Shown in pieces: positions 53,131 to 63,278 of a stretch of 64,000 bases of DNA. This DNA comes from an uncultured Candidatus Saccharibacteria bacterium (GTDB taxonomy: Bacteria; Patescibacteriota; Minisyncoccia; Phycocordibacterales; JABMNX01), in assembly GCA_964575755.1 (NCBI GenBank), contig CAZNRH010000002.1:6107-70106 (forward strand), written 5' to 3'. A model generated the notes under the pieces. It worked only from the letters and a program-made list of their open reading frames with translations. It did not search any database and was not told the origin of the DNA. Each line of letters starts with the position of its first letter. Position 1 is the stretch's first letter. The position numbers were made by a program, and so were the translations under genes.

Positions 53131-54321
53131 TTATGTAATATTTTTATTTACTTTTATGTTTTTTATTGAGTATTCTTTGTTTAAATAAATCTTATTCATT
53201 ATTTTATTTACAGACCATCCAACAAATGCAAGGATTGCAAAATAATAGACGCCATTTAATGTAAATGACGGTAGCTCGGTTTTTGAAAAAAGCCCAAGTA
53301 ATGTAGCACCAACCCCCATAGAGGTTACTACTGTTAGGTTTTTAATAGAGTTGCTCGTTGCCTTTGCTTGCAAATCTCCAAAAACATTTAAGGCGGAATC
53401 AACATAAGACCGAGTCATACCCCAAATCTCTTTCACATACGACAACGTGTCACTTAATGTATCGTATTTAAACTGCAACACATCAGCAAACTTCTCCATT
53501 TGAGGATTATTCTTAATTATGCTACCTCTTGTATTAATATATGCCCCCATTTGGTTGATACGAGTACCAATCATACTGATTGATTTATTATATCCCTCTA
53601 TCTTCTCTTTAAAACCTCTTATTTCTTTTCCTCTTATAGAACCTCGTTCCTTCACTTCTGCAATATTTTCCCAAATAACACGATGAAGATTCAAATATCT
53701 ATGCATTTGCCCTTTAAACTCTCTAATAAAGATTTGTTCACCTATAAACCGCTCTATTGACTCGAGTGACTCCCCGAGTAAATTGACTATATATAAAGTA
53801 TCTCCCCTATACACTTCAAAAGTATCTTTCTTAATCTCAAAGTGTTTCTTTTGGTTAAAATCATCCAAAAGTGTATTTATATTACCTTCATGTGCATTAT
53901 CAAGCACGATAAAATATGGATATACTGTTTTTATATTTGCGAGCTCTTTAGGAATAGGAGCGCCAAGACTAAATATATACGAAATACCTTCAGAAAGTTC
54001 GTTCTCATAATATGAAGAAAGGAGTTCCATACCATTTTTTATATCCTCAATCTTATTGGTATCGTGACTCAGCACAATAAGACCATCTTCGTATATCTTA
54101 AAAGAGATATTATTTTTTGCTATCACGTGCAGATATTCAAACTCCTCATGAACATCCTTTACACTAATAATATTAAGATTATCTCTTAAGGTTTTTAATT
54201 TGTTTTTATCAAGGTCAAGTGGTGACTCAGCAGTGGTCAAGAAATCATATATCTCAGATAAATGAAGTGTCGTGCGTTGAAACCAGCTTCCAATAAAAAT
54301 TTTCTTTACTTTCATATCCAT
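53131..54321 (-). CDS. Hypothetical protein with large cytoplasmic domain and two C-terminal TM helices (CorA-like topology, no GMN motif)
   Basis: Long helical region then KNLTVVTSMGVGATLLGLF-loop-TLNGVYYFAILAFVGW and a KK-rich tail, resembling CorA/ZntB layout; GLF where CorA has GMN. Confidence 0.4.
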   Translation of the reverse strand: MDMKVKKIFIGSWFQRTTLHLSEIYDFLTTAESPLDLDKNKLKTLRDNLNIISVKDVHEEFEYLHVIAKNNISFKIYEDGLIVLSHDTNKIEDIKNGMELLSSYYENELSEGISYIFSLGAPIPKELANIKTVYPYFIVLDNAHEGNINTLLDDFNQKKHFEIKKDTFEVYRGDTLYIVNLLGESLESIERFIGEQIFIREFKGQMHRYLNLHRVIWENIAEVKERGSIRGKEIRGFKEKIEGYNKSISMIGTRINQMGAYINTRGSIIKNNPQMEKFADVLQFKYDTLSDTLSYVKEIWGMTRSYVDSALNVFGDLQAKATSNSIKNLTVVTSMGVGATLLGLFSKTELPSFTLNGVYYFAILAFVGWSVNKIMNKIYLNKEYSIKNIKVNKNIT

Positions 54322-54408: not shown

Positions 54409-54945
54409 TTACTCACACACCAAAGGTTCCTTTATCTTTTTCAAGATTATGTAAGAAGAATAAATAAGTAAACCTACACCAAGAAAGCCAAACTCTTCAC
54501 CTCCAAAAGGTAAATAGACAAGTAAGCCACTTGCTCCAAATAAGGCTAATATTGAAGTGAATACAAATGTACCACATGTAGCACAGCCAATACCAAACAC
54601 TCCACTAACCAAGCCCCCTACACTCAAAGTAGTACCAGATGCTAAACTTTTTGTTTGTCTACTACGTATATAATAAACCAAAAGTGAGATATTTATACCA
54701 AACAGTACAGCTATAATAATCGTATAGCTTGCAGAAATAGCCGTAAAATTTGTTTGTATAGACCCAACAAAACTAAACATGAAACCTATTTTGTCTGTAA
54801 TAGGTACACTGGAATTAAATACTATGTCAATTACCAAACTGACGTTTGATAGCCACACCGCCAATACAAATATCACTACTGCAATAATAACTGCAGTAGC
54901 TATATATTTTATCTGAGAGAAAACCTTTTTAAAAGTATTTAACAC
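54409..54945 (-). CDS. Membrane protein with intramembrane CxxC (CATCGT)
   Basis: About 5 TM helices; Cys pair inside a TM helix; last gene of the CsoR-headed operon. Confidence 0.45.
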   Translation of the reverse strand: MLNTFKKVFSQIKYIATAVIIAVVIFVLAVWLSNVSLVIDIVFNSSVPITDKIGFMFSFVGSIQTNFTAISASYTIIIAVLFGINISLLVYYIRSRQTKSLASGTTLSVGGLVSGVFGIGCATCGTFVFTSILALFGASGLLVYLPFGGEEFGFLGVGLLIYSSYIILKKIKEPLVCE

Positions 54946-54947
54946 AA

Positions 54948-55697
54948 TTATTTTTTCTCTTTTAGAGCTATTTCAATAAGTTGTTTTACTGTTGAGTACG
55001 GCTGAGCACCAGAAAGTGGAAATGTTGTCTTGCTTTTTTCCGCGATAACTATACTCCACGGAGTACCTCTGGCTCCAGTCTCAATTGCATTATCTATATT
55101 GTCTTGTATGTGCTTATCATACTTCCCGCTATTCATACATGCACTAAATTTCTGCTCATCTATAGCAAGCTCTCTGACTATTTGAGGAATAACCACTTCA
55201 ATATTGATTTGATTGTTAGATGGTGTTAACTCAAACAATCTATCAGCGAATTTCCAAAACACATCATTACCACCTATCTCATTAGCGCACTCTGTCGCAA
55301 CTGCCTCAACGCGCGCTTTCACTGGATGTAATTGATCAATTGGAAAATGTCTATATACCCAAGCCACTTGTCCATCTGGACCATACTCATCCATGATTTG
55401 GTTCATTGTAACGTGGAATGACTTACAGAAAGGACACTCAAAATCAGAATATTCAACAATTTTTACGGGAGCATTTGGATTTCCTAATATATGATCTTCG
55501 TTTGTTACAGGGCGGACACTGTCAGTAGGGCTTACCTCTTTCGACACACTGTTTCCATTACTATACACCACTGCAAATGCTATAAGGGCTCCAGCTATTA
55601 CAATCGCAACTGGAACGAAAATATTATTCTTTGTCTCTTGCTCTTGATACTCTTCTTTGTTTTCTATATTTACAGTCTGATCTTCCATGGTACTCAA
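54948..55697 (-). CDS. Membrane-anchored DsbA-family thiol:disulfide oxidoreductase
   Basis: TM anchor then thioredoxin fold with CPFC active site (YSDFECPFCKSFH) and DsbA-type helical insertion. Confidence 0.7.
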   Translation of the reverse strand: MSTMEDQTVNIENKEEYQEQETKNNIFVPVAIVIAGALIAFAVVYSNGNSVSKEVSPTDSVRPVTNEDHILGNPNAPVKIVEYSDFECPFCKSFHVTMNQIMDEYGPDGQVAWVYRHFPIDQLHPVKARVEAVATECANEIGGNDVFWKFADRLFELTPSNNQINIEVVIPQIVRELAIDEQKFSACMNSGKYDKHIQDNIDNAIETGARGTPWSIVIAEKSKTTFPLSGAQPYSTVKQLIEIALKEKK

Positions 55698-55731
55698 TTT
55701 TACTTATTTTTATTATATATAATAGCCCCTA

Positions 55732-57777
55732 TTATACCACCTCTAAATTAACTCGCTTTAAAGATAATGCATTAATAACAACGATAACCGTTGAAAGGCT
55801 CATTAGTAAAGCGCCTATCTCTGGACGTAAGAAAAATCCAAATACCGCAAACACTCCTGCTGCTGCTGGGATGGCGACAATGTTGTAGCCAAGCGCCCAC
55901 ACAAGATTTTGAATCATCTTTGTATATACTGCTTTTGAGAGTACAAGTAATTTAACAATATCCCTAGGGTCGCTCTTCATAAGCACTACGTCGCCAGCCT
56001 CCACAGCAACATCCGTACCAGCCCCTATTGCGATACCTACATTTGCTTGAGTTAATGCTGGCGCATCATTTACACCGTCGCCTACCATAAGAACTACACT
56101 ACCGTCTTCTTGTAATTTTTTTATATGATTGTACTTATCTTCAGGTAGAACATTTGCAAAATATGTGTCTATGTTGAGTTTTTTTGCTACCCCTCCCGCA
56201 ACATCATTGTTATCACCAGTAAGCATCGCGACCTTAACCCCAAGCTTGTGTAGTTTACTGACAGCGCTATATGATTCATCTTTTATTTCATCAGAAAGAG
56301 CAATCACCCCAACTACCTTCTTGTCACTTGTAATAAATACTGACGTCTTGCCCTCTGCAGAAAAATCTGCATACACCTTCTCTGCTTCAGTATCTGATAT
56401 CTTAGCGTCTGTTATAAGTGCATGATTTCCAACTCCATGCTCAACACCATCAACCACGCCACTAACCCCCTTACCTGCTATGTTTTTAAACTGCTTAGGA
56501 TTACTCAAAACAATCCCTTTTTCTTTTACATAATTTACAATAGACTTCCCAATAATATGAGAAGAGTGCTGTTCTAGAGATGCAACTATCTTTAATACTT
56601 GATCATCTGTGTGCTCGTTAAATGACACAATATCAGTCACCCCAAACTCTCCTTTTGTTAAGGTGCCTGTTTTATCAAATACAACATAATTAGTTTTTTT
56701 AATAACTTCAATTTTTGACAAATCTTTAATAAACACACCATTTTTTACCGCCAGTGAAGTTGTGATGGTGGTGACTGTCGGTATAGCCAGACCAAGGGCA
56801 TGAGGGCACGCCACAACAAGCACGGTGATACCAAGGGTAATAGAAAACACAAACGGTTCCCCCATAAACACAGACCACACAAGAATTGTTAAGAGAGCGG
56901 TGATACCAGCAATAAAAGTAAGCATAGCAGCGGCTTTATCTGCAATACGCTGTGAGCGTGGTTTTGTACTTTGTGCGTCAGAAATAAGTTTCTGAATTTG
57001 ACCAATAGTAGAGTCTTCACCAACTCGAGATAACACTATGACAAGTGAACCATCTAAACATATAGAACCAGCCACAACTTCGTCTTTTTCTTTTTTCTCA
57101 ATAGGTTTTGATTCCCCACTTATAAGTGACTCGTCTATGTTCGCAGAACCTTCTTTAATAATTCCATCTGCAGGAATCTTCTCTCCTGGTTTTACCAGTA
57201 CGATATCCCCATCCTTCAGAAGTTCAACACCCACCTCCTCTTCCACCCCATTTACAATCTTATGGGCTTTCTTAGGTAAAAGCTTAGCAACTTCTTGGAG
57301 GGCATTACCAGCAGCAGTACTAGAGCGTGCCTCAAGATAATGCCCAAAAAGAAGTACCCATATAAGTGTAGATATTTCAATATAAAACTCTGCGTCTAGT
57401 GCTGGTATAAACGTAGAAACTACAGAAAAAAGGTACCCTGAACCAACAGCCAGAGAGACCAGGGTCATCATTCCATATTTCCGAGCCTTTATCTCGTGCG
57501 ATGCGTGCTCGAAAAACACTAGAGCAAAACCAAATATAATTGTTGCTATGCCGAGCTGAATCCACTTACCAAGAGGGAGTGTACCTATTCCTATAAACCC
57601 CACTACGGATTCATTTGTAAATATAAGTGGAATTAAAAGAAATGTAACAATCCAAAATCTACGAAGAAAATCCCTAGATGAACCGTGATCCATCCCAGGG
57701 CTACTAGAATGCTCGACGCCACACGCGTCGTGTTGCTTATCACCACAATGTTCCATACTCACATTCTTTTGTGTCAC
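55732..57777 (-). CDS. copB: P1B-type heavy-metal (copper) translocating ATPase, CopB-like
   Basis: TM6 CPH motif (VVACPHALGLAIPT), DKTGTLT, GDGVNDAPAL, TGES actuator; His/Cys-rich N-terminus (MEHCGDKQHDACGVEH) instead of a classic GMTCxxC HMA domain. Confidence 0.9.
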   Translation of the reverse strand: MTQKNVSMEHCGDKQHDACGVEHSSSPGMDHGSSRDFLRRFWIVTFLLIPLIFTNESVVGFIGIGTLPLGKWIQLGIATIIFGFALVFFEHASHEIKARKYGMMTLVSLAVGSGYLFSVVSTFIPALDAEFYIEISTLIWVLLFGHYLEARSSTAAGNALQEVAKLLPKKAHKIVNGVEEEVGVELLKDGDIVLVKPGEKIPADGIIKEGSANIDESLISGESKPIEKKEKDEVVAGSICLDGSLVIVLSRVGEDSTIGQIQKLISDAQSTKPRSQRIADKAAAMLTFIAGITALLTILVWSVFMGEPFVFSITLGITVLVVACPHALGLAIPTVTTITTSLAVKNGVFIKDLSKIEVIKKTNYVVFDKTGTLTKGEFGVTDIVSFNEHTDDQVLKIVASLEQHSSHIIGKSIVNYVKEKGIVLSNPKQFKNIAGKGVSGVVDGVEHGVGNHALITDAKISDTEAEKVYADFSAEGKTSVFITSDKKVVGVIALSDEIKDESYSAVSKLHKLGVKVAMLTGDNNDVAGGVAKKLNIDTYFANVLPEDKYNHIKKLQEDGSVVLMVGDGVNDAPALTQANVGIAIGAGTDVAVEAGDVVLMKSDPRDIVKLLVLSKAVYTKMIQNLVWALGYNIVAIPAAAGVFAVFGFFLRPEIGALLMSLSTVIVVINALSLKRVNLEVV

Positions 57778-57795
57778 TTTGTTTCTATTATTTAA

Positions 57796-58062
57796 TTAAT
57801 TTTTATCTTTTTCCAACTCTTCAAATTTTTCTGTAAATTGTTCTTTTGTTGCACCTCCAAAAACAAAAAATTTATCGTTGACCAAAATACCAGGACTTGA
57901 AAGGATCCCATACTTTTTAACCATTTCCTGTCCCTCAGGGGTCACCATATCAACTTCTTCGATTGTTATATCAGGATAATCTGATTTCATTTCTTCAAGT
58001 GTTGCTTTTACCGCTTTACAATGTGCACATCCATCTGGACGAATAAGTGTTACTTTTAACAT
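57796..58062 (-). CDS. Glutaredoxin/thioredoxin-like small protein (CAHC)
   Basis: 88 aa, CxxC motif PDGCAHCKAV near N-terminus, thioredoxin-fold length. Confidence 0.6.
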   Translation of the reverse strand: MLKVTLIRPDGCAHCKAVKATLEEMKSDYPDITIEEVDMVTPEGQEMVKKYGILSSPGILVNDKFFVFGGATKEQFTEKFEELEKDKN

Positions 58063-58088
58063 AATTTTTATAATTTATTAATTTACTA

Positions 58089-58322
58089 TTAATTTTTCCG
58101 ACCTTTTTTAATAATTTTTGCTACAACTACTGTCGCGACAATAATTAAAACTGCAACAAGTGGTCCAACCCAATCCGCCTCAGAAATCACGGTGATGTTT
58201 TCCTCTCCTTCATGAGCAAACACAGTTGCGGACGACAGTAGAAAGTATGCGATTGTGAGAATGGTTAATTTCACCCCGTTAGAAGTCTGTCTTACATAAC
58301 TACTATGTTTAATTTTATACAT
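58089..58322 (-). CDS. Small secreted/membrane protein with HEGEEN motif and C-terminal TM anchor
   Basis: Signal peptide, acidic His/Glu patch, C-terminal helix plus KKGRKN stop-transfer. Confidence 0.35.
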   Translation of the reverse strand: MYKIKHSSYVRQTSNGVKLTILTIAYFLLSSATVFAHEGEENITVISEADWVGPLVAVLIIVATVVVAKIIKKGRKN

Positions 58323-58376
58323 ATTTTATATTTATTATGTCCCATTAACCCGATTTAGAGAAACTTCTAACGGGGT

Positions 58377-59342
58377 TCATATATTTTTAATATTTCTTTT
58401 TGAATGAATAGCGTCCCAAAGAACAATTACTCCGATAATACCCCCAAATACAAGCCATGGGACAATACCACCTTCACCAGATGGGATACTGAGCGAGGCT
58501 TCAATAGCACCCGACTCAGCAATTCTAGGAAATGCAATTTCTAACCATCTATTCCACGCTTGATGGATGATAGAATCTTCAAACCATGCCATACCAAATA
58601 TGCCGTAGTTTAATATGAATGCACCAAGACCAACCAACATCCATGAAACCCACCGTTTCACTTTTTCTTGATAGTCACTAACCTTGCTCATAGCGTTAAT
58701 TCCTAAGACTGCCAAGACCACCAAGAAAAGTAGTGGTACGACTCTACCAAGTCCATGTATAGCGCCAAGCGAAGCTCCTACTGTTGGTATTCCAACAGTC
58801 GCAACATAACCAAATAAAATATAAAACGCAGGATTAGGGCATCCTACACCAGCATTGCCTAAGAAAAAACCTAAAAAGAAACTCCTCAAATAGTCATTTT
58901 TGCCTTGGAGAGATTTAGGCATGATTGTCTGCTTAAAAGGTAATCTAAACTTCACAAGACCAAGTTCCGAAATACCAAAGAAAAGTGCCGCGACCCCTCC
59001 AATCAAAAGCATAGCACTTATAATCTTGTACAATGCAACAAATCCACCAAGCCATCCAAGGACAACTCCGTATATAGTGAATGTAACAATGAGTCCAAGC
59101 CCAAAGAGAAGTGCCATCATGAACCCCTTACCTTTTTCTCGCGAAAGAGCTAACGGAACAATAATAAAGACAAGCGGAAATGTACATGGTAGTACTATCA
59201 TAGAAAGCCCCGCAAGAAATGCGAGAGAATATCCAGGTATGAACTCAGACGAGGTCATAAAACTGAAGACCCCAATGAGAATAATCGACAAAAGTACAAA
59301 TGCCGAGAATACAAGCCAAATTTTAAAAACTTTTGAAGTCAT
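58377..59342 (-). CDS. DsbD/CcdA-family membrane thiol-disulfide electron transporter-like protein
   Basis: Polytopic; two intramembrane Cys in CcdA-like contexts (MIVLPCTFPL and GVGCPNPAF). Confidence 0.5.
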   Translation of the reverse strand: MTSKVFKIWLVFSAFVLLSIILIGVFSFMTSSEFIPGYSLAFLAGLSMIVLPCTFPLVFIIVPLALSREKGKGFMMALLFGLGLIVTFTIYGVVLGWLGGFVALYKIISAMLLIGGVAALFFGISELGLVKFRLPFKQTIMPKSLQGKNDYLRSFFLGFFLGNAGVGCPNPAFYILFGYVATVGIPTVGASLGAIHGLGRVVPLLFLVVLAVLGINAMSKVSDYQEKVKRWVSWMLVGLGAFILNYGIFGMAWFEDSIIHQAWNRWLEIAFPRIAESGAIEASLSIPSGEGGIVPWLVFGGIIGVIVLWDAIHSKRNIKNI

Positions 59343-59382
59343 ATATTAATTATATTTTAGATTATATAAAACCATAACCCAC

Positions 59383-59859
59383 TTATTCAACATCATTTTT
59401 AACAACATTGCCTGAAAACGTCACTTTAATCTCTGGTGTAACTGTAGAATTGGTTTTAAGCATTAATTCTCGCTTTATTTTACCTATACCATTTGGTCCA
59501 TGTGCAAGAGGGTCAAAAGTAGCAGTAAGAGTCTTTTCTTCTCCAGCTGGAATAATCACAGTTTTACCAGAACTTTCATGCATACCAAATTCTAAATCAC
59601 CTATTTTTCCTGCTGTGCACATACAGCTTGTTACAGCCGATAAAATACTAACATCTTCATCTCCTTCATTTTTAAGTGTATACGTAGTACTTACTTTTCC
59701 ACTAAATATGTCTATGTCACCGAAGTCATGTGATGGTTCAACAACTGTTATAACCGATGCAACTTCAGTAAGTTGAGAAGTTTCATCTTTTGTTAATCCA
59801 TATGAAGCAACTATGAGTATCCCTACAAGTATTAATGCTCCTATTATATATTTATTCAT
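59383..59859 (-). CDS. Secreted DUF1573-domain protein
   Basis: Signal peptide; HDFGDI...YTLKNEGDEDVSI...SCMCT pattern typical of DUF1573 Ig-like domains. Confidence 0.55.
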   Translation of the reverse strand: MNKYIIGALILVGILIVASYGLTKDETSQLTEVASVITVVEPSHDFGDIDIFSGKVSTTYTLKNEGDEDVSILSAVTSCMCTAGKIGDLEFGMHESSGKTVIIPAGEEKTLTATFDPLAHGPNGIGKIKRELMLKTNSTVTPEIKVTFSGNVVKNDVE

Positions 59860-59884
59860 TGTTTCTTAATATTAAATTAATAAA

Positions 59885-60739
59885 CTATTCCCCTTCTTTA
59901 ATGTCGACTTGTATTGCCACTTCAGCTTCAGGTGTTAATTTATCGTTAGTTGGGATAAAAATCGTGCGCTTAAATACACCAAGTGGTTCTTCATGAAAAT
60001 CTGGGTTGAAAAACACAGTGAGGATTGTCTCTCCTCCTTTAGGAATGGTTCGTGAAGCAACATTTGCAGATGTACAACTACAACTTGTTGTAATATCTCC
60101 TATTACAAGTTCCTCTGTTCCCTCATTCTTTACTGTAAAAGTTGTCTCTACTACACCACCATATTGTGTGATAACACCGAAATCATGCATAATACGGTCA
60201 AGAGTTATCCTTGGACCATCTGAAGATGCGTCTACATCATTCCCGCTCGCTGTGTTCGCACCAGTAAGCGCTCCTGTTTCAGTAAATGGGTAATTATCTT
60301 CTTCCCAATGAATCATTCCTCCTGAAACACTCTTTATATTTGTGTAACCAAGTGAATTCATAATGTCATATGCGGTCTTACTCCGCGCACCGCTTCTGCA
60401 ATATATAATGATCTCTTTGTCTTTTGAGGACTCTCCCAATCCAATACTAGCTAGCGACTGCTGTGATAATTCTTGAACTGGAAGAAGTAGAGCACCTTTT
60501 AGATGGATTTCCTCATATTCTCCTAAAGTTCGTACGTCTAGTAAAATAATATCTTTATTATTTTTAATTTTGTTGGCTACATCTTCTGGATAAATTTCGT
60601 GACTTTCTACCATCTCGTTTTCATGATGTCCTACATCTGTCATCATACTGTTGTTATTCATACTAGTTGTAAAAAAGTAACCGATTCCTATAACAACAAC
60701 TAATGTAAAAGATATAGTAGCAATGTTGTTTATATTCAT
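59885..60739 (-). CDS. Membrane-anchored rhodanese (sulfurtransferase) domain fused to a DUF1573 domain
   Basis: Rhodanese active-site loop YCRSGARS; C-terminal HDFGVI...FTVKNEGTEELVI...SCSCT DUF1573. Confidence 0.7.
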   Translation of the reverse strand: MNINNIATISFTLVVVIGIGYFFTTSMNNNSMMTDVGHHENEMVESHEIYPEDVANKIKNNKDIILLDVRTLGEYEEIHLKGALLLPVQELSQQSLASIGLGESSKDKEIIIYCRSGARSKTAYDIMNSLGYTNIKSVSGGMIHWEEDNYPFTETGALTGANTASGNDVDASSDGPRITLDRIMHDFGVITQYGGVVETTFTVKNEGTEELVIGDITTSCSCTSANVASRTIPKGGETILTVFFNPDFHEEPLGVFKRTIFIPTNDKLTPEAEVAIQVDIKEGE

Positions 60740-60742
60740 ATG

Positions 60743-61012
60743 TTATTTTTTCTTTGATAATTTATATACTGATAAAATTTCATCTATTGCGCGTTTATGT
60801 TTACCACTCTTCATTTGTTGAACCACATGTGTAGATAAGTGGTTTTCAAGCATCATATCTTCAATAGAAGAAAGAGCCTGCCGTACAGCAGATGTCTGAG
60901 TAATAACATCAACGCAATACTCCCCTTCTTCGATCATTTTATAGAGCCCCTTGACCTGACCTTCGATTATTTTAAGTCTTCGTAGCAATTTCTTCTTTAC
61001 TTCTTTTTTCAT
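60743..61012 (-). CDS. csoR: CsoR/RcnR-family metal-sensing transcriptional repressor
   Basis: LRRLKIIEGQVKGLYKMIEEGEYCVDVITQ; ligand positions read x-C-H-H (Cys in YCVDV, His in ENHL and STHV), intermediate between CsoR (x-C-H-C) and RcnR (H-C-H-H). Confidence 0.8.
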   Translation of the reverse strand: MKKEVKKKLLRRLKIIEGQVKGLYKMIEEGEYCVDVITQTSAVRQALSSIEDMMLENHLSTHVVQQMKSGKHKRAIDEILSVYKLSKKK

Positions 61013-61019
61013 GTCAGTG

Positions 61020-61044
61020 TATAATACCCCATGGGGGTATTATA
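61020..61044. promoter_or_regulatory. Candidate CsoR operator: perfect palindrome TATAATACCCC-ATG-GGGGTATTATA in the divergent promoter region
   Basis: 11-nt perfect inverted arms around ATG; ATACCCC...GGGGTAT matches the G/C-tract pseudo-palindromes bound by CsoR-family repressors; overlaps a -10-like TATAAT. Confidence 0.6.
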
Positions 61045-61135
61045 GGTCAAGTGTTTTTTATAGCATCTGTGATACACCACCATTAAGACAGAGTGTGAAC
61101 CGTATATTATTAACGTATTAACTTCATAAATTACT

Positions 61136-61597
61136 ATGAAAAAGATTCTATTACCGCTACTATTTGTGGCTATTGCTATGCCGTTATTATCAAGCGCTCA
61201 TTCAGGAGACACTTCGTCATTCTCTAACACAGACTTCGGACAAGGTTTCATGATGATGCAAGAAGCTGAAGATCGTGCACTTGGCAATGATTTACATGAG
61301 GAAATGGAAGGTCTTATGTTAAAGACAATATCAGACGACATGTCTCAAGCAGACATGGATAGACTTCTTGTTCTTATGGACGAGCATCCAGGAGCTGGTT
61401 CAATGATGATGGGTCGCATGATGGGAGGATATTACAATACTGGATCTGGTTGCTTTTTTAGTGCTGGTTCTATGTATGGGTTCCACAGAGGATCAGGACT
61501 TTGGGGAAGCCTGTTTATGATTATCTTCTGGGGGTTGGCTATAACAGGACTTGTAACTGCTCTTAAGTACGTAAGAAACAATAGAAAATCAAAATAA
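61136..61597 (+). CDS. Secreted Met-rich (putative copper-binding) protein with C-terminal TM anchor
   Basis: Signal peptide; Met clusters (GFMMMQEA, GSMMMGRMMGG) like Met-rich Cu(I) sites; divergent from csoR. Confidence 0.55.
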   Translation: MKKILLPLLFVAIAMPLLSSAHSGDTSSFSNTDFGQGFMMMQEAEDRALGNDLHEEMEGLMLKTISDDMSQADMDRLLVLMDEHPGAGSMMMGRMMGGYYNTGSGCFFSAGSMYGFHRGSGLWGSLFMIIFWGLAITGLVTALKYVRNNRKSK

Positions 61598-61979: not shown

Positions 61980-62066
61980 ATGTTAAATTGTAGCAAAATA
62001 ACCTATACAAAATCCAAGGTCTTTCCTTGGATAAATTAGAGTGCTGCGGCATGGCTATAAATGGTT

Positions 62067-62100
62067 AAAGCCCCCGTTTGCTTCCGCAAATGGGGGCTTT
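62067..62100 (-). terminator. Hairpin terminator downstream of pyrC (AAAGCCCCC-GTTTGC..GCAAAT-GGGGGCTTT)
   Basis: 9 plus 5 bp stem, about 90 nt below the pyrC stop. Confidence 0.45.
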
Positions 62101-62189
62101 CTTTGTGGTGTTTAGAGCCGTTTATGAGCCCTTGTACACGAAAAAGAAAGATGGCGCCGATCAAAGCTCGGCGCCATAATTTTCGACAG

Positions 62190-63278
62190 TTAGCCAACCA
62201 TCTTCCATTCAAGTTCTTCACCAAGGAAAAATGGTTGAATTTGGTCAGAGGGCAAGACCCCCCTTTCTTCAGTTGCCCAAACAGGGACAGACTCTTTCAC
62301 AACCCAAGGTTCACGACGTAAGGTAACCATTTCTTCTGAAAGTTTAATACCATAAAACTTAGACCCATTAAGCGACATGAATGCCTCAAAATGTTCAAGT
62401 GCTCCTGCTTTATCAAAAACAGTTGCGTAAAGTTCAAGAGCTGCATGGGCTGAATATATACCGCCCGGACAACACTCGACTTCTTTCTTACCTTTTAGGT
62501 GTGGAGCCGAGTCTGTACCACAAAAAATGTTCGGGTTTCCTGATGCGATAGCATCAATTAAAGCAGTTCTATTGTCCCTTCGTTTTACAACTGGAAGACA
62601 AAACAGATGTGGTCTCAGACCACCCCTAAACAAATCATCTCGTGTAATCAAGAGGTGGTGAGCTGTAACAGTCGCAGCCAGATTCCCACTCGTGTCATTC
62701 ATCACATAATCAACCGCTTCTTTGGTTGTAATATGCTCGAACACGATGCGCAAGTCAGGGTATGAATCGCGAAGCGGTATAAGAACCTTCTTGATAAAAA
62801 CATCCTCGCGGTCAAACGGATCAACTTCGACGCCGTCGTCATGCACAACTTCTCCATGCATCAACAATGGAATTTTGAATTTTTCCATAGCTTTTAAGAC
62901 GTCGTGGATATTATTAATGTCAGTAACGCCAAGCTTTGAGTTTGTCGTCGCATTTGCAGGGTAAAGCTTTGCCGCAACCCAACTTTCATTATGAAATCCC
63001 CACATGAGCTCACTATGGTTTGTGTCGTCCGTAAGGTACGTCGTCATAAGTGGCTTAAAAGTGCTTTTGTCTGGAAGAGCAGACATGATTTCTGCTTTAT
63101 ATTCATCTGCTTGTGGTGTGGTTGTAATTGGCGGATTAAGATTCGGCATAATTATTGCCGAATCAAACTGTCGTGCAGAGTGTCCTATTACTGCTTTAAG
63201 AACATTTCCATCACGTACATGGAGATGTGCATCAAACGGCTTAACAATTGATAGTTCATTAGTTATTGTTTCAGTCAT
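62190..63278 (-). CDS. pyrC: Dihydroorotase, class II (E. coli PyrC type)
   Basis: Near-collinear with E. coli PyrC: DAHLHVRDG, AKLYPANATTNS, HGEV, VFEHITT, GTDSAPH. Confidence 0.9.
   Translation of the reverse strand: MTETITNELSIVKPFDAHLHVRDGNVLKAVIGHSARQFDSAIIMPNLNPPITTTPQADEYKAEIMSALPDKSTFKPLMTTYLTDDTNHSELMWGFHNESWVAAKLYPANATTNSKLGVTDINNIHDVLKAMEKFKIPLLMHGEVVHDDGVEVDPFDREDVFIKKVLIPLRDSYPDLRIVFEHITTKEAVDYVMNDTSGNLAATVTAHHLLITRDDLFRGGLRPHLFCLPVVKRRDNRTALIDAIASGNPNIFCGTDSAPHLKGKKEVECCPGGIYSAHAALELYATVFDKAGALEHFEAFMSLNGSKFYGIKLSEEMVTLRREPWVVKESVPVWATEERGVLPSDQIQPFFLGEELEWKMVG

Follow-up and report, generated by a model that had tools for sequence, protein, structure and literature searches.

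A CsoR-headed cluster of copper-efflux and envelope thiol genes in a Candidatus Saccharibacteria bacterium

The DNA considered here is a stretch of 64,000 nucleotides (nt) from an uncultured Candidatus Saccharibacteria bacterium (contig CAZNRH010000002.1), referred to below as the window or the 64-kb window. It contains a cluster of nine open reading frames (ORFs) on the minus strand, headed by the gene for a CsoR-family repressor, together with one divergent ORF on the plus strand and an operator within the promoter region that the two sides share. All ten ORFs proposed in the initial annotation were found where it had placed them. The features are as follows, with the basis of each assignment in brackets (aa, amino acids; TM, transmembrane).

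54409..54945, minus strand: 178-aa protein with 4 TM helices, of an unannotated family (family alignment, neighbourhood)
54948..55697, minus strand: membrane-anchored DsbA-like oxidoreductase, motif ECPFCK (Pfam Thioredoxin_4/DSBA)
55732..57777, minus strand: CopB-type (P1B-3) copper ATPase (Pfam E1-E2 ATPase and HAD, motifs)
57796..58062, minus strand: 88-aa thioredoxin-fold protein with a GCAHC motif and an SPG cis-Pro loop (Pfam/NCBIfam, adjacency)
58089..58322, minus strand: small single-TM peptide (conserved position between the DsbD-like and thioredoxin genes)
58377..59342, minus strand: long CcdA/DsbD-like membrane protein, 321 aa, about 8 TM helices (Pfam DsbD_TM, alignment)
59383..59859, minus strand: membrane-anchored DUF1573 protein, 158 aa, with a CxC motif, TSCMCTA (Pfam, E 7.7e-12)
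59885..60739, minus strand: membrane-anchored rhodanese (loop CRSGARS) fused to a DUF1573 Ig-like domain (TSCSCTS), 284 aa (Pfam)
60743..61012, minus strand: csoR, 89-aa repressor of the x-C-H-H Cu(I)-sensor type (Pfam, PDB alignment, clade conservation)
61020..61044, no strand assigned: CsoR-type operator, the G/C-tract palindrome TATAATACCCCATGGGGGTATTATA (uniqueness, recurrence 5' of csoR)
61021..61050, minus strand: putative operon promoter TTGACC-18-TATTAT (consensus match, 10/12)
60996..61025, plus strand: putative promoter of the divergent Met-rich gene, TTTACT-18-TATAAT (consensus match, 10/12)
61136..61597, plus strand: divergent Met-rich secreted protein with a C-terminal TM anchor (sequence, homologues divergent from csoR)

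The gaps between the minus-strand genes, from csoR onward, are 3, 25, 40, 54, 26, 18, 34 and 2 nt. Co-orientation is uninformative, because nearly every gene in the window lies on the minus strand, and the weight therefore rests on the tight spacing and on conservation elsewhere. Scans with the hidden Markov models (HMMs) of Pfam and NCBIfam upheld the domain calls made initially, namely CsoR, rhodanese, DUF1573, DsbD, thioredoxin fold, ATPase and DsbA-like. Two labels need refinement. The ORF described as a 77-aa HEGEEN protein exists, but its start is more likely the GTG at 58274, which gives 61 aa; its homologues are 46-65 aa long and begin MK(I/L). The protein described as CAHC glutaredoxin-like does have a thioredoxin fold, but is better labelled a small thioredoxin of the MJ0307/Thioredoxin_3 type (Pfam/NCBIfam). 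The 77-aa, 178-aa and Met-rich proteins matched no Pfam or NCBIfam family even at E≤10, where only noise was returned.

The csoR product matches PF02583 with E 2.5e-26 (92 bits, against a Pfam cut-off of 22.8), and a search of the PDB matched it to solved CsoRs at 1.6e-15 and weaker. C33, H58 and H62 align on the Cu(I) ligand positions of 4m1p, 2hh7 and 3aai, the third ligand position being His, as it is in Thermus thermophilus CsoR (PDB 3aai). There is one Cys in the whole protein, and the N-terminus, MKKEVKK, has no nearby His or Pro. E78 aligns with E81 of M. tuberculosis CsoR, in which Y35 and E81 are second-shell residues that couple copper binding to DNA release. Among 21 CsoR homologues encoded beside related clusters, the C-H-H ligands are kept in 19, Tyr32 in 20 and Glu78 in all 21, and 18 have a single core Cys like the window protein. 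A survey of the superfamily assigns the motif x-C-H-H to a copper-sensor cluster (cluster 17, typified by Thermus CsoR), x-C-x-C to persulfide sensors, H-C-H-H to RcnR and P-C-H-x to FrmR (PMC8643695), and the Thermus protein, TTHA1719, is a validated CsoR that represses copZ-csoR-copA (PMC10318464). Judged by its residues, the csoR product is a member of the copper-sensor class. Readings of the protein as RcnR (Ni/Co) or FrmR (formaldehyde) were rejected: there is no N-terminal His or Pro, and residue 4 aligns with FrmR residue 6, so there is no W residue. Its NCBIfam scores against RcnR and FrmR lie far under the cut-offs.

The palindrome reported at 61020-61044 is real. Its core, ATACCCCATGGGGGTAT at 61024-61040, lies inside TATAATACCCCATGGGGGTATTATA and is the sole site of its kind in the 64-kb window, where 0.05 would be expected by chance. 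As regards a wider regulon, further copies of the operator were sought across the window and none was found. A box with the pattern ATACCC(C)-N3-5-(G)GGGTAT stands immediately 5' of csoR in about 18 related loci (these are given L-numbers below), and extra copies of it precede detached modules in L013, L088, L050 and L043. On the minus strand, the operator fills the spacer of the promoter-like site, whose -10 element ends 8 nt before the csoR ATG, so that the csoR transcript would be nearly leaderless. On the plus strand, the -10 element of the promoter-like site is itself the left arm of the palindrome. The conserved ligands, the second-shell residues and the operator together suggest that Cu(I) is bound by C33, H58' and H62' and that repression is relieved in a copper-dependent manner.

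The ATPase belongs to the copper P1B subfamily TIGR01511 (563 bits, against an NCBIfam cut-off of 397). The signature of P1B-3 pumps consists of CPH in TM4, YN(x)4P in TM5, MSxST in TM6, DKTGT, and a His-rich N-terminus without an HMA domain. The window protein has the corresponding motifs VACPHAL, YNIVAIP, MSLST and FDKTGT, and its N-terminus has four His and two Cys within the first 31 residues and no HMA domain. The divergent gene encodes a protein with 15 Met in 132 mature residues and a predicted mature N-terminus of His. Its homologues are also divergent from csoR in L011 and L017. In L010, L012 (which is the same as L006), L024/25 and L087, the genes divergent from csoR encode DUF5676 (2-TM) and DUF302 proteins in place of the Met-rich protein. 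In L011 and L029 the Met-rich homologue has a C-terminal extension (LEILKERYAKGEIDKDEFE..), SHOCT-like by eye, which the window copy lacks.

The long DsbD-like protein matches DsbD_TM (PF02683) with E 1.5e-9 and 37.9 bits, against a cut-off of 27.1. Its LPC (C53) and GCP (C168) cysteines are invariant in 23 aligned sequences. Compared with CcdA it has one additional N-terminal and one additional C-terminal helix, and a conserved segment, WFEDSxxH..WN..P.IAES..E, is probably extracytoplasmic. A search of its profile against the PDB gave no usable match. There are 1562 homologues, the named ones being from Campbell-, Zambryski-, Niyogi-, Harrison- and Wolfebacteria (70-90% identity) and Uhrbacteria (about 60%), and the gene was found at 394 loci in species-representative genomes, DPANN archaea and Nitrosopumilus among them. 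The protein is far more conserved than its neighbours, which suggests either very strong constraint or exchange of the module between lineages. Compared with L010, it is 90% identical, and the DsbA-like and 178-aa proteins are 52-62% identical. In L087 the DsbD-like slot is held by a 40%-identical paralogue, with neighbours that are 49-70% identical to those in the window.

The small peptide is always encoded between the DsbD-like and thioredoxin genes. In the window copy, the predicted signal-peptide cut falls between FA and H, giving a mature N-terminus H-E-G-E-E, and about 19 of 22 homologues share a signal peptide ending in FA before an H, a mature H-E-E/G-G, one TM helix and a basic tail. 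The 88-aa CAHC protein matches Thioredoxin_3/Glutaredoxin in Pfam, has no signal peptide and is cytoplasmic; homologues keep the GC-x-H/N-C and SPG motifs. It is presumed to be the electron donor to the DsbD-like protein. Its gene ends 18 nt before the ATPase gene.

Two exported proteins with a DUF1573 domain are encoded between csoR and the DsbD-like gene. The 284-aa fusion matches rhodanese (PF00581) with E 3.8e-16 and DUF1573 with E 5e-18 in Pfam. Its CRSGARS catalytic loop, of the CRxGxR type, is intact and is kept in L012, L017 and L024/25, and the protein, anchored in the membrane by its N-terminus, is predicted to lie outside the cytoplasm. The same fusion lies directly 3' of csoR in L012, L017, L024/25 and L087, and separate exported rhodaneses are encoded directly 5' of the copper ATPase genes in L058, L070 and L088. 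The motif [TA]SCxCT is present in 12 of 12 full-length DUF1573 neighbours and in every rhodanese-DUF1573 fusion. Selenoprotein forms of the DUF1573 family carry UGC at the CxC position (PMC9312934), and this points to a redox-active or metal-binding first Cys. The DUF1573 protein sequence found no usable match in the PDB.

The closest solved relatives of the DsbA-like protein are 4n30 (a protein disulfide isomerase), the 3f4r-t proteins, DsbA (4pwp/4pwo) and BdbD (3eu3). In every locus examined, a gene of the 178-aa family stands beside a DsbA-like gene, the gap in the window being 2 nt. The 178-aa family has as invariant features GxGCAxCG in TM3 (C121, C124), P146, G149 and E151 (in a PFGGEE loop) and C177 (PLVC); by the positive-inside rule, the CxxC is predicted to lie towards the outer face and C177 in the cytoplasm. 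There are 311 close homologues, the named ones all being Patescibacteria. A profile search showed that the superfamily comprises 1,637 representative clusters (defined at 50% identity) at E≤1e-3, and 1,017 at E≤1e-10, and it has no Pfam model. In its strict pairing, where a DsbA-like gene is followed (in the window after 2 nt) by one for a small 4-TM protein whose CxxC is invariant, the arrangement resembles DsbA-DsbB, DsbA-VKOR and BdbD-BdbC. However, the 178-aa protein could not be placed in the DsbB/VKOR group: it has no HMM match in Pfam, and it has one Cys pair and a lone, predicted cytoplasmic C-terminal Cys, where DsbB and VKOR have two extracytoplasmic Cys pairs. Structure comparison found no match, the model that was used being only moderately confident, and a profile-profile comparison of the 178-aa and DsbD-like families was not significant (0.85% probability).

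The DsbA-like gene is directly 3' of a thioredoxin or ATPase gene in L010, L011, L012, L022, L058, L070 and L088. The pair also occurs without copper genes, in L002/L003 (a complete 721-kb genome) and in L004/L005 (where a DUF3105 gene lies between the two). The DsbA-like/178-aa pair would then be a self-standing module captured at the 3' end of the operon, with the membrane partner as a candidate thiol relay, which may act as an oxidase, a reductase or a carrier of metal. It is worth adding that the complete Patescibacteria genome CP174359 (L002:15241-15711) has a VKOR-domain gene by a Redoxin/AhpC gene, 5 kb from its pair of a DsbA-like and a 180-aa protein; because this genome carries both, the 4-TM family does not merely stand in for VKOR. 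There are also fusion ORFs of about 475-620 aa (L013:2593-4074, L087:14176-15648, L079:3200-5062 and L056:7219-8643), with no Pfam or NCBIfam match, in which an N-terminal membrane part like the 178-aa protein (GCP[VIT]CG ... PxxGLE) is joined to a Cys-rich domain of about 300 aa. The motifs ASTGGWT, YRPCCxNSxxFxDCNHG and FWFPQ are found in the Cys-rich domain of L013, L079 and L087, that of L056 being more divergent, and all four ORFs end in GCG[VI] or GGC. The fusion ORF in L013 has a CsoR-type box on its 5' side and a DsbD-like gene on its 3' side.

Gene order was compared in other genomes, and copper export proved to be linked to extracytoplasmic thiol/disulfide genes there too, the relatives that carry the homologues being Patescibacteria metagenome-assembled genomes. 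Counts were made within 10 kb of the DsbD-like gene in 80 loci, many of them incomplete, so that all are lower bounds. A thioredoxin-fold gene is present in 63 of the 80, a copper-type P1B ATPase in 25, the small peptide in 22, a DsbA-like gene in 21, a CsoR gene in 20, the 178-aa family in 14, DUF1573 in 13 and the rhodanese-DUF1573 fusion in 9. All of the nearby ATPases with a detectable TM4 motif have either CPC (17) or CPH (7), making 24 of 24. In the 50 loci of at least 12 kb, 40 have at least one metal-related gene and 28 have a CsoR or copper ATPase gene. The complete nine-gene order is found in one further genome (L006, the same as L012), with proteins that are 43-85% identical. It is nearly complete in L010, L011, L017, L024/25 and L087, where the ATPase or the DsbA pair is absent, moved by a few kb, or swapped. 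In L009 the DsbD-like, small peptide and thioredoxin genes stand alone, and in the Wolfebacteria locus L007 the DsbA pair follows directly after the thioredoxin gene, with no ATPase. Seen across these loci, the cluster is an unusually full assemblage of modules that recur elsewhere. It is more than a chance neighbourhood, yet the super-operon of the original description is a mosaic, whose modules are conserved separately and also occur alone, rather than an indivisible whole.

Some of the related loci have a mercury context. MerA (with CVNVGC and a C-terminal SCC) is encoded beside the DsbD-like gene, or a few kb from it, in L030, L031, L034, L035, L079, L041, L068 and L069. ArsR was detected in L030, L031, L034 and L035, and in those four the DsbD-like gene is followed by the small peptide and the thioredoxin. 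The order in L034 and L031 is ArsR, MerA, a membrane protein of 166-169 aa, a Cys-rich exported protein of about 200 aa, DsbD-like, peptide, thioredoxin; L035 is the same minus the Cys-rich protein, and L030 has ArsR, DsbD-like, peptide, thioredoxin, MerA. Along its whole length the 166-aa protein is a homologue of the 178-aa one (hhalign 93%, E 3e-7); it has CxSC in a TM helix and a C-terminal CxxC, and the Cys-rich protein (L031, L034) has CC/CCCKC motifs and a C-terminal His cluster. Neither matches MerT, MerC or any other Pfam family, and no MerT, MerP, MerC or other known Hg permease was recognised in the MerA-bearing loci. The 178-aa protein resembles MerT/MerC/MerF in being a small membrane protein with a Cys pair in a TM helix and a C-terminal Cys that is predicted to be cytoplasmic, and in having a homologue in ArsR-MerA operons. 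It differs in having no MerT or MerC Pfam match, and its partner in the window is DsbA-like rather than MerA or MerP.

Other loci have copper proteins. A cupredoxin of about 140 aa, with a CuA-like C-x3-C-x3-H-x2-M motif and no Pfam match at 1e-3, is encoded near the DsbD-like gene in 13 related loci. In seven (L038, L042, L045, L046, L048, L051 and L061) it lies between a DsbD-like gene, mostly in a fused form of 670-845 aa, and a CPC (CopA-type) ATPase gene, and a thioredoxin gene is upstream in most of these. The cupredoxin is also found in L052, L044 and L087. In L007 a multicopper oxidase gene is divergent to the DsbD-like/peptide/thioredoxin core.

The cluster can be compared with several characterised systems. 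Its regulator shares with Thermus thermophilus CsoR (TTHA1719, 3aai, cluster 17 of the sequence similarity network) the repressor family, the x-C-H-H ligands and the Tyr/Glu second shell. As in CsoR-CopZ-CopA operons, a G/C-tract pseudo-palindromic operator lies at the repressor's own promoter and a copper P1B ATPase would come under its control. However, the window has no CopZ, its pump is of the CopB type (CPH, His-rich N-terminus) rather than a CopA with HMA domains, and seven thiol/disulfide genes are added in the gene string. The half-sites also differ, those of the window being A/T-flanked (ATACCCC) in comparison with the Thermus site CCCCACCCCACCTGGGGTGGGG.

The cluster was initially said not to be a textbook cop operon. 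The coupling of copper to a DsbD-type envelope thiol system does have a precedent in Scs, which is a copper-induced envelope thiol system with a DsbD-type conduit, a DsbA/DsbG-like partner and thioredoxin-fold proteins, some of them Cu(I)-binding (PMC10907172). ScsABCD of Salmonella, Proteus and Caulobacter, together with copper tolerance through DsbD (CutA2), would be the closest characterised analogue, by functional analogy only, and the logic of the relay proposed below may be shared also with TlpA-Sco systems. The window differs from Scs in that Pfam/NCBIfam showed neither equivalents of ScsA or ScsD nor a periplasmic domain fused in the manner of ScsB; its conduit is a long CcdA-like protein that stands alone, accompanied by a small peptide and a cytoplasmic thioredoxin of its own. 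DUF1573 CxC proteins and a rhodanese would be the clients, control is by CsoR and not by Cpx or CueR, the thiol genes are physically joined to the efflux operon, and the host is a Patescibacterium, a group not known to have a Gram-negative outer membrane.

The alpha domain of DsbD is an Ig-like domain with a cysteine pair. DsbD (alpha Ig-like, beta TM, gamma thioredoxin) and the CcdA-TlpA/ResA systems have in common with the window a DsbD_TM domain with both signature cysteines, a thioredoxin-fold partner and an Ig-like domain with a Cys pair (here DUF1573), and by this analogy DUF1573 may be the equivalent of DsbD-alpha. In the window, however, these are separate polypeptides, the thioredoxin is cytoplasmic, the membrane protein has extra N- and C-terminal TM helices and a conserved His/Glu-rich outer segment, and there are no cytochrome c maturation genes nearby.

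We consider it probable, though far from certain, that the cluster is a Patescibacterium copper-stress operon, in which three separately conserved modules behind one Cu(I)-sensing repressor combine copper efflux with the delivery of reductant to envelope cysteines. In this model, apo CsoR would sit on the palindrome and block both the spacer of its own promoter and the -10 element of the divergent one, until Cu(I) bound at C33/H58'/H62' frees the DNA. That a Cu(I)-responsive CsoR gates a divergent pair of promoters, one for the Met-rich arm and one for the repressor arm, is well supported by the residues and the operator, and the repressor arm very probably also yields the downstream genes, including the Cu(I) efflux pump. 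Derepression would allow the CopB-type ATPase to pump cytoplasmic Cu(I) out, and would release the Met-rich surface protein, which probably buffers Cu(I). The remaining genes would form a split DsbD. The cytoplasmic CxHC thioredoxin would donate electrons to the long CcdA-like protein by way of the latter's two membrane cysteines, the small peptide with its N-terminal His being an accessory subunit of that protein, and the electrons would go on to the exported Ig-like DUF1573 CxC proteins, one of them fused to the rhodanese. Envelope cysteines would in this way be kept reduced while copper is expelled, either for repair or for binding Cu(I), with the fused rhodanese, and perhaps the DsbA-like protein, as targets of the relay. 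This reductive step is proposed from domain content, predicted topology and conserved adjacency.

Several points weigh against this reading. Promoter-like matches are no commoner in the region than in shuffled sequence, and there are weak internal promoter-like sites 5' of the DsbD-like gene (59390..59361) and of the DsbA-like gene (55747..55719); co-transcription and copper induction are both only inferred. No CsoR box accompanies the DsbA-like/178-aa pair at loci where it stands apart from the other genes. DUF1573 and the rhodanese are only candidate substrates of the DsbD-like protein. In addition, an unbiased clustering of neighbouring ORFs showed that the DsbD-like/peptide/thioredoxin core also occurs in ArsR-MerA operons; Hg(II) binds thiols rather than oxidising them, so a metal-relay role may fit at least as well.

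Such a role would have the DsbD-like, peptide, thioredoxin, DUF1573 and 178-aa proteins pass Cu(I) or Hg(II) between Cys pairs, like MerP/MerT/MerC, instead of electrons. The thioredoxin-fold protein would then be the missing CopZ-like chaperone, feeding a CopB that lacks HMA domains, and the absence of CopZ from the cluster and the 18 nt that separate the thioredoxin and ATPase genes are in keeping with this. So are the presence of the core beside MerA where no MerT, MerP or MerC was recognised, the 166-aa homologue of the 178-aa protein in MerA operons, and the predicted topology of the 178-aa protein, with C177 cytoplasmic and the CxxC near the outer face. Nevertheless we think it unlikely, though it deserves to be taken seriously. 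Copper import would be counter-productive under a repressor that opens at high copper, the Pfam family is that of the electron-transferring DsbD/CcdA proteins with both signature cysteines present, and the thioredoxin gene accompanies the DsbD-like gene in 63 of the 80 loci, the ATPase gene in 25 only. A DsbD_TM protein with a dedicated cytoplasmic thioredoxin is the canonical electron-transfer pair, and for this reason, and because copper import under a high-copper switch makes little sense and the window has no cuproenzyme, the electron relay is ranked above both the metal relay and the loading of cuproproteins. In the latter case the ATPase would deliver Cu(I) outwards and the DsbD-like pathway would keep acceptor cysteines reduced, as in TlpA/Sco/CoxB. 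The cupredoxins in 13 loci, seven of them with the gene between the DsbD-like and CPC ATPase genes, and the multicopper oxidase divergent to the core in L007 favour this. The cluster in the window has no cupredoxin or other recognisable copper enzyme, however, and a repressor that leaves its DNA at high Cu(I) is in keeping with detoxification. Pumps of the CopB type that have a His-rich N-terminus usually serve resistance, and we give cuproprotein maturation little chance of being right.

It is about equally improbable, in our view, that the 3' end of the cluster is a fortuitous juxtaposition, the DsbA-like and 178-aa proteins being a housekeeping oxidative-folding pair with its own promoter and no copper regulation. 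The pair is indeed found without a copper gene or CsoR box in L002/L003 and L004/L005 and at least 3 kb from the core in L017, L019, L024/25 and L043, and the weak site at 55747..55719 could serve as its promoter, but only 34 nt, which contain no terminator-like hairpin, lie between it and the ATPase gene, and the position directly after a thioredoxin or ATPase gene in seven loci makes the arrangement a recurrent one. The initial annotation had also allowed that the inducer might be reactive sulfur species, alone or together with copper; on that reading the cluster would be a persulfide-stress operon with a CstR-like sensor and a rhodanese that detoxifies sulfane sulfur. A rhodanese with an intact CRSGARS loop does follow immediately after the CsoR-family gene, as in the cst operons of CstR, and CstR regulons often include rhodaneses (PMC10318464). 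However, the three clusters of reactive sulfur sensors are all x-C-x-C dithiols (PMC8643695), and with one Cys only and His at the Z position, a CstR-type dithiol mechanism is chemically impossible for the window protein. A Tyr/Glu second shell, typical of Cu(I) CsoRs, is conserved. The rhodanese has a membrane anchor and its predicted location is extracytoplasmic, there is no cytoplasmic sulfurtransferase of the cst type, no genes for SQR, persulfide dioxygenase (PDO) or TauE were found in the cluster by Pfam/NCBIfam, and the companion transporter is a copper ATPase. This reading is already largely refuted and scarcely credible. The first description of the locus was thus accurate, and as far as sequence can decide, the copper half of its interpretation is right and the persulfide half is refuted.

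A broader reading can be put forward only tentatively, and we incline to doubt it. A modular defence toolkit against soft metals, based on thiols, may be common to Patescibacteria, DPANN and Nitrosopumilus, consisting of the split DsbD and the new 4-TM superfamily and placed behind either CsoR (for copper) or ArsR-MerA (for mercury). The 4-TM protein could then be a third kind of membrane partner for DsbA, or a MerT-like permease for copper or mercury. Organisms of the Patescibacteria and DPANN type usually lack quinones, and if the 4-TM family does prove to be a partner of DsbA, it would bear on how disulfides are formed in organisms that are generally without respiratory quinones.

Copper toxicity acts largely through cysteine chemistry, and a link between efflux and envelope thiols is known only from a few Proteobacteria (Scs, DsbD). 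The locus described here would follow that logic with uncharacterised components assembled independently, in members of the Candidate Phyla Radiation and in DPANN archaea, where genomes are minimal and each operon that is retained tells us something of the needs of the cell surface. Copper efflux under CsoR and copper-linked envelope thiol systems are both known; the present implementation and most of its parts are not, and the literature that was searched held no description of the gene arrangement, of the long CcdA subfamily with its peptide, of a function for DUF1573, or of the 4-TM family. The analysis thereby offers testable roles to several orphans, namely DUF1573, the long CcdA subfamily with its micro-peptide, and a 4-TM CxxC family of more than 1,600 clusters whose members always accompany a DsbA-like protein. 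An attractive lead is corrected as well, in that the regulator cannot act as a persulfide sensor of the CstR type.

Some further observations concern the surroundings of the cluster and of its relatives. A 2-TM protein of about 90 aa that ends in GCCGLKG and has no Pfam match (here called CCG100) is encoded in 9 loci, including L010, L019, L027, L054, L070, L087 and L088, in several of which its gene is right after the thioredoxin gene or just before that of the copper ATPase. An ABC ATPase with a C-terminal YHS domain is found in 14 loci. In the window, a 396-aa ORF (53131-54321, minus strand) lies 87 nt 3' of the cluster, with no terminator-like hairpin between them; its sole family signal is a weak CorA-like one at its C-terminal two-TM end (E 0.018). 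It is probably outside the system, because L012 has a 767-aa Cytochrom_D1-type protein in that place. An Rfam scan of the 64-kb window gave a tRNA as its sole match. Finally, the 216-nt intergenic region at 61980-62195 (minus strand), between dihydroorotase-like and GIY-YIG genes, has a folding energy of -75.3 kcal/mol (z = -6.2 against shuffled sequence) and no Rfam match above noise, and contains three strong hairpins, one with a 15-bp stem, which may be tandem or bidirectional terminators.

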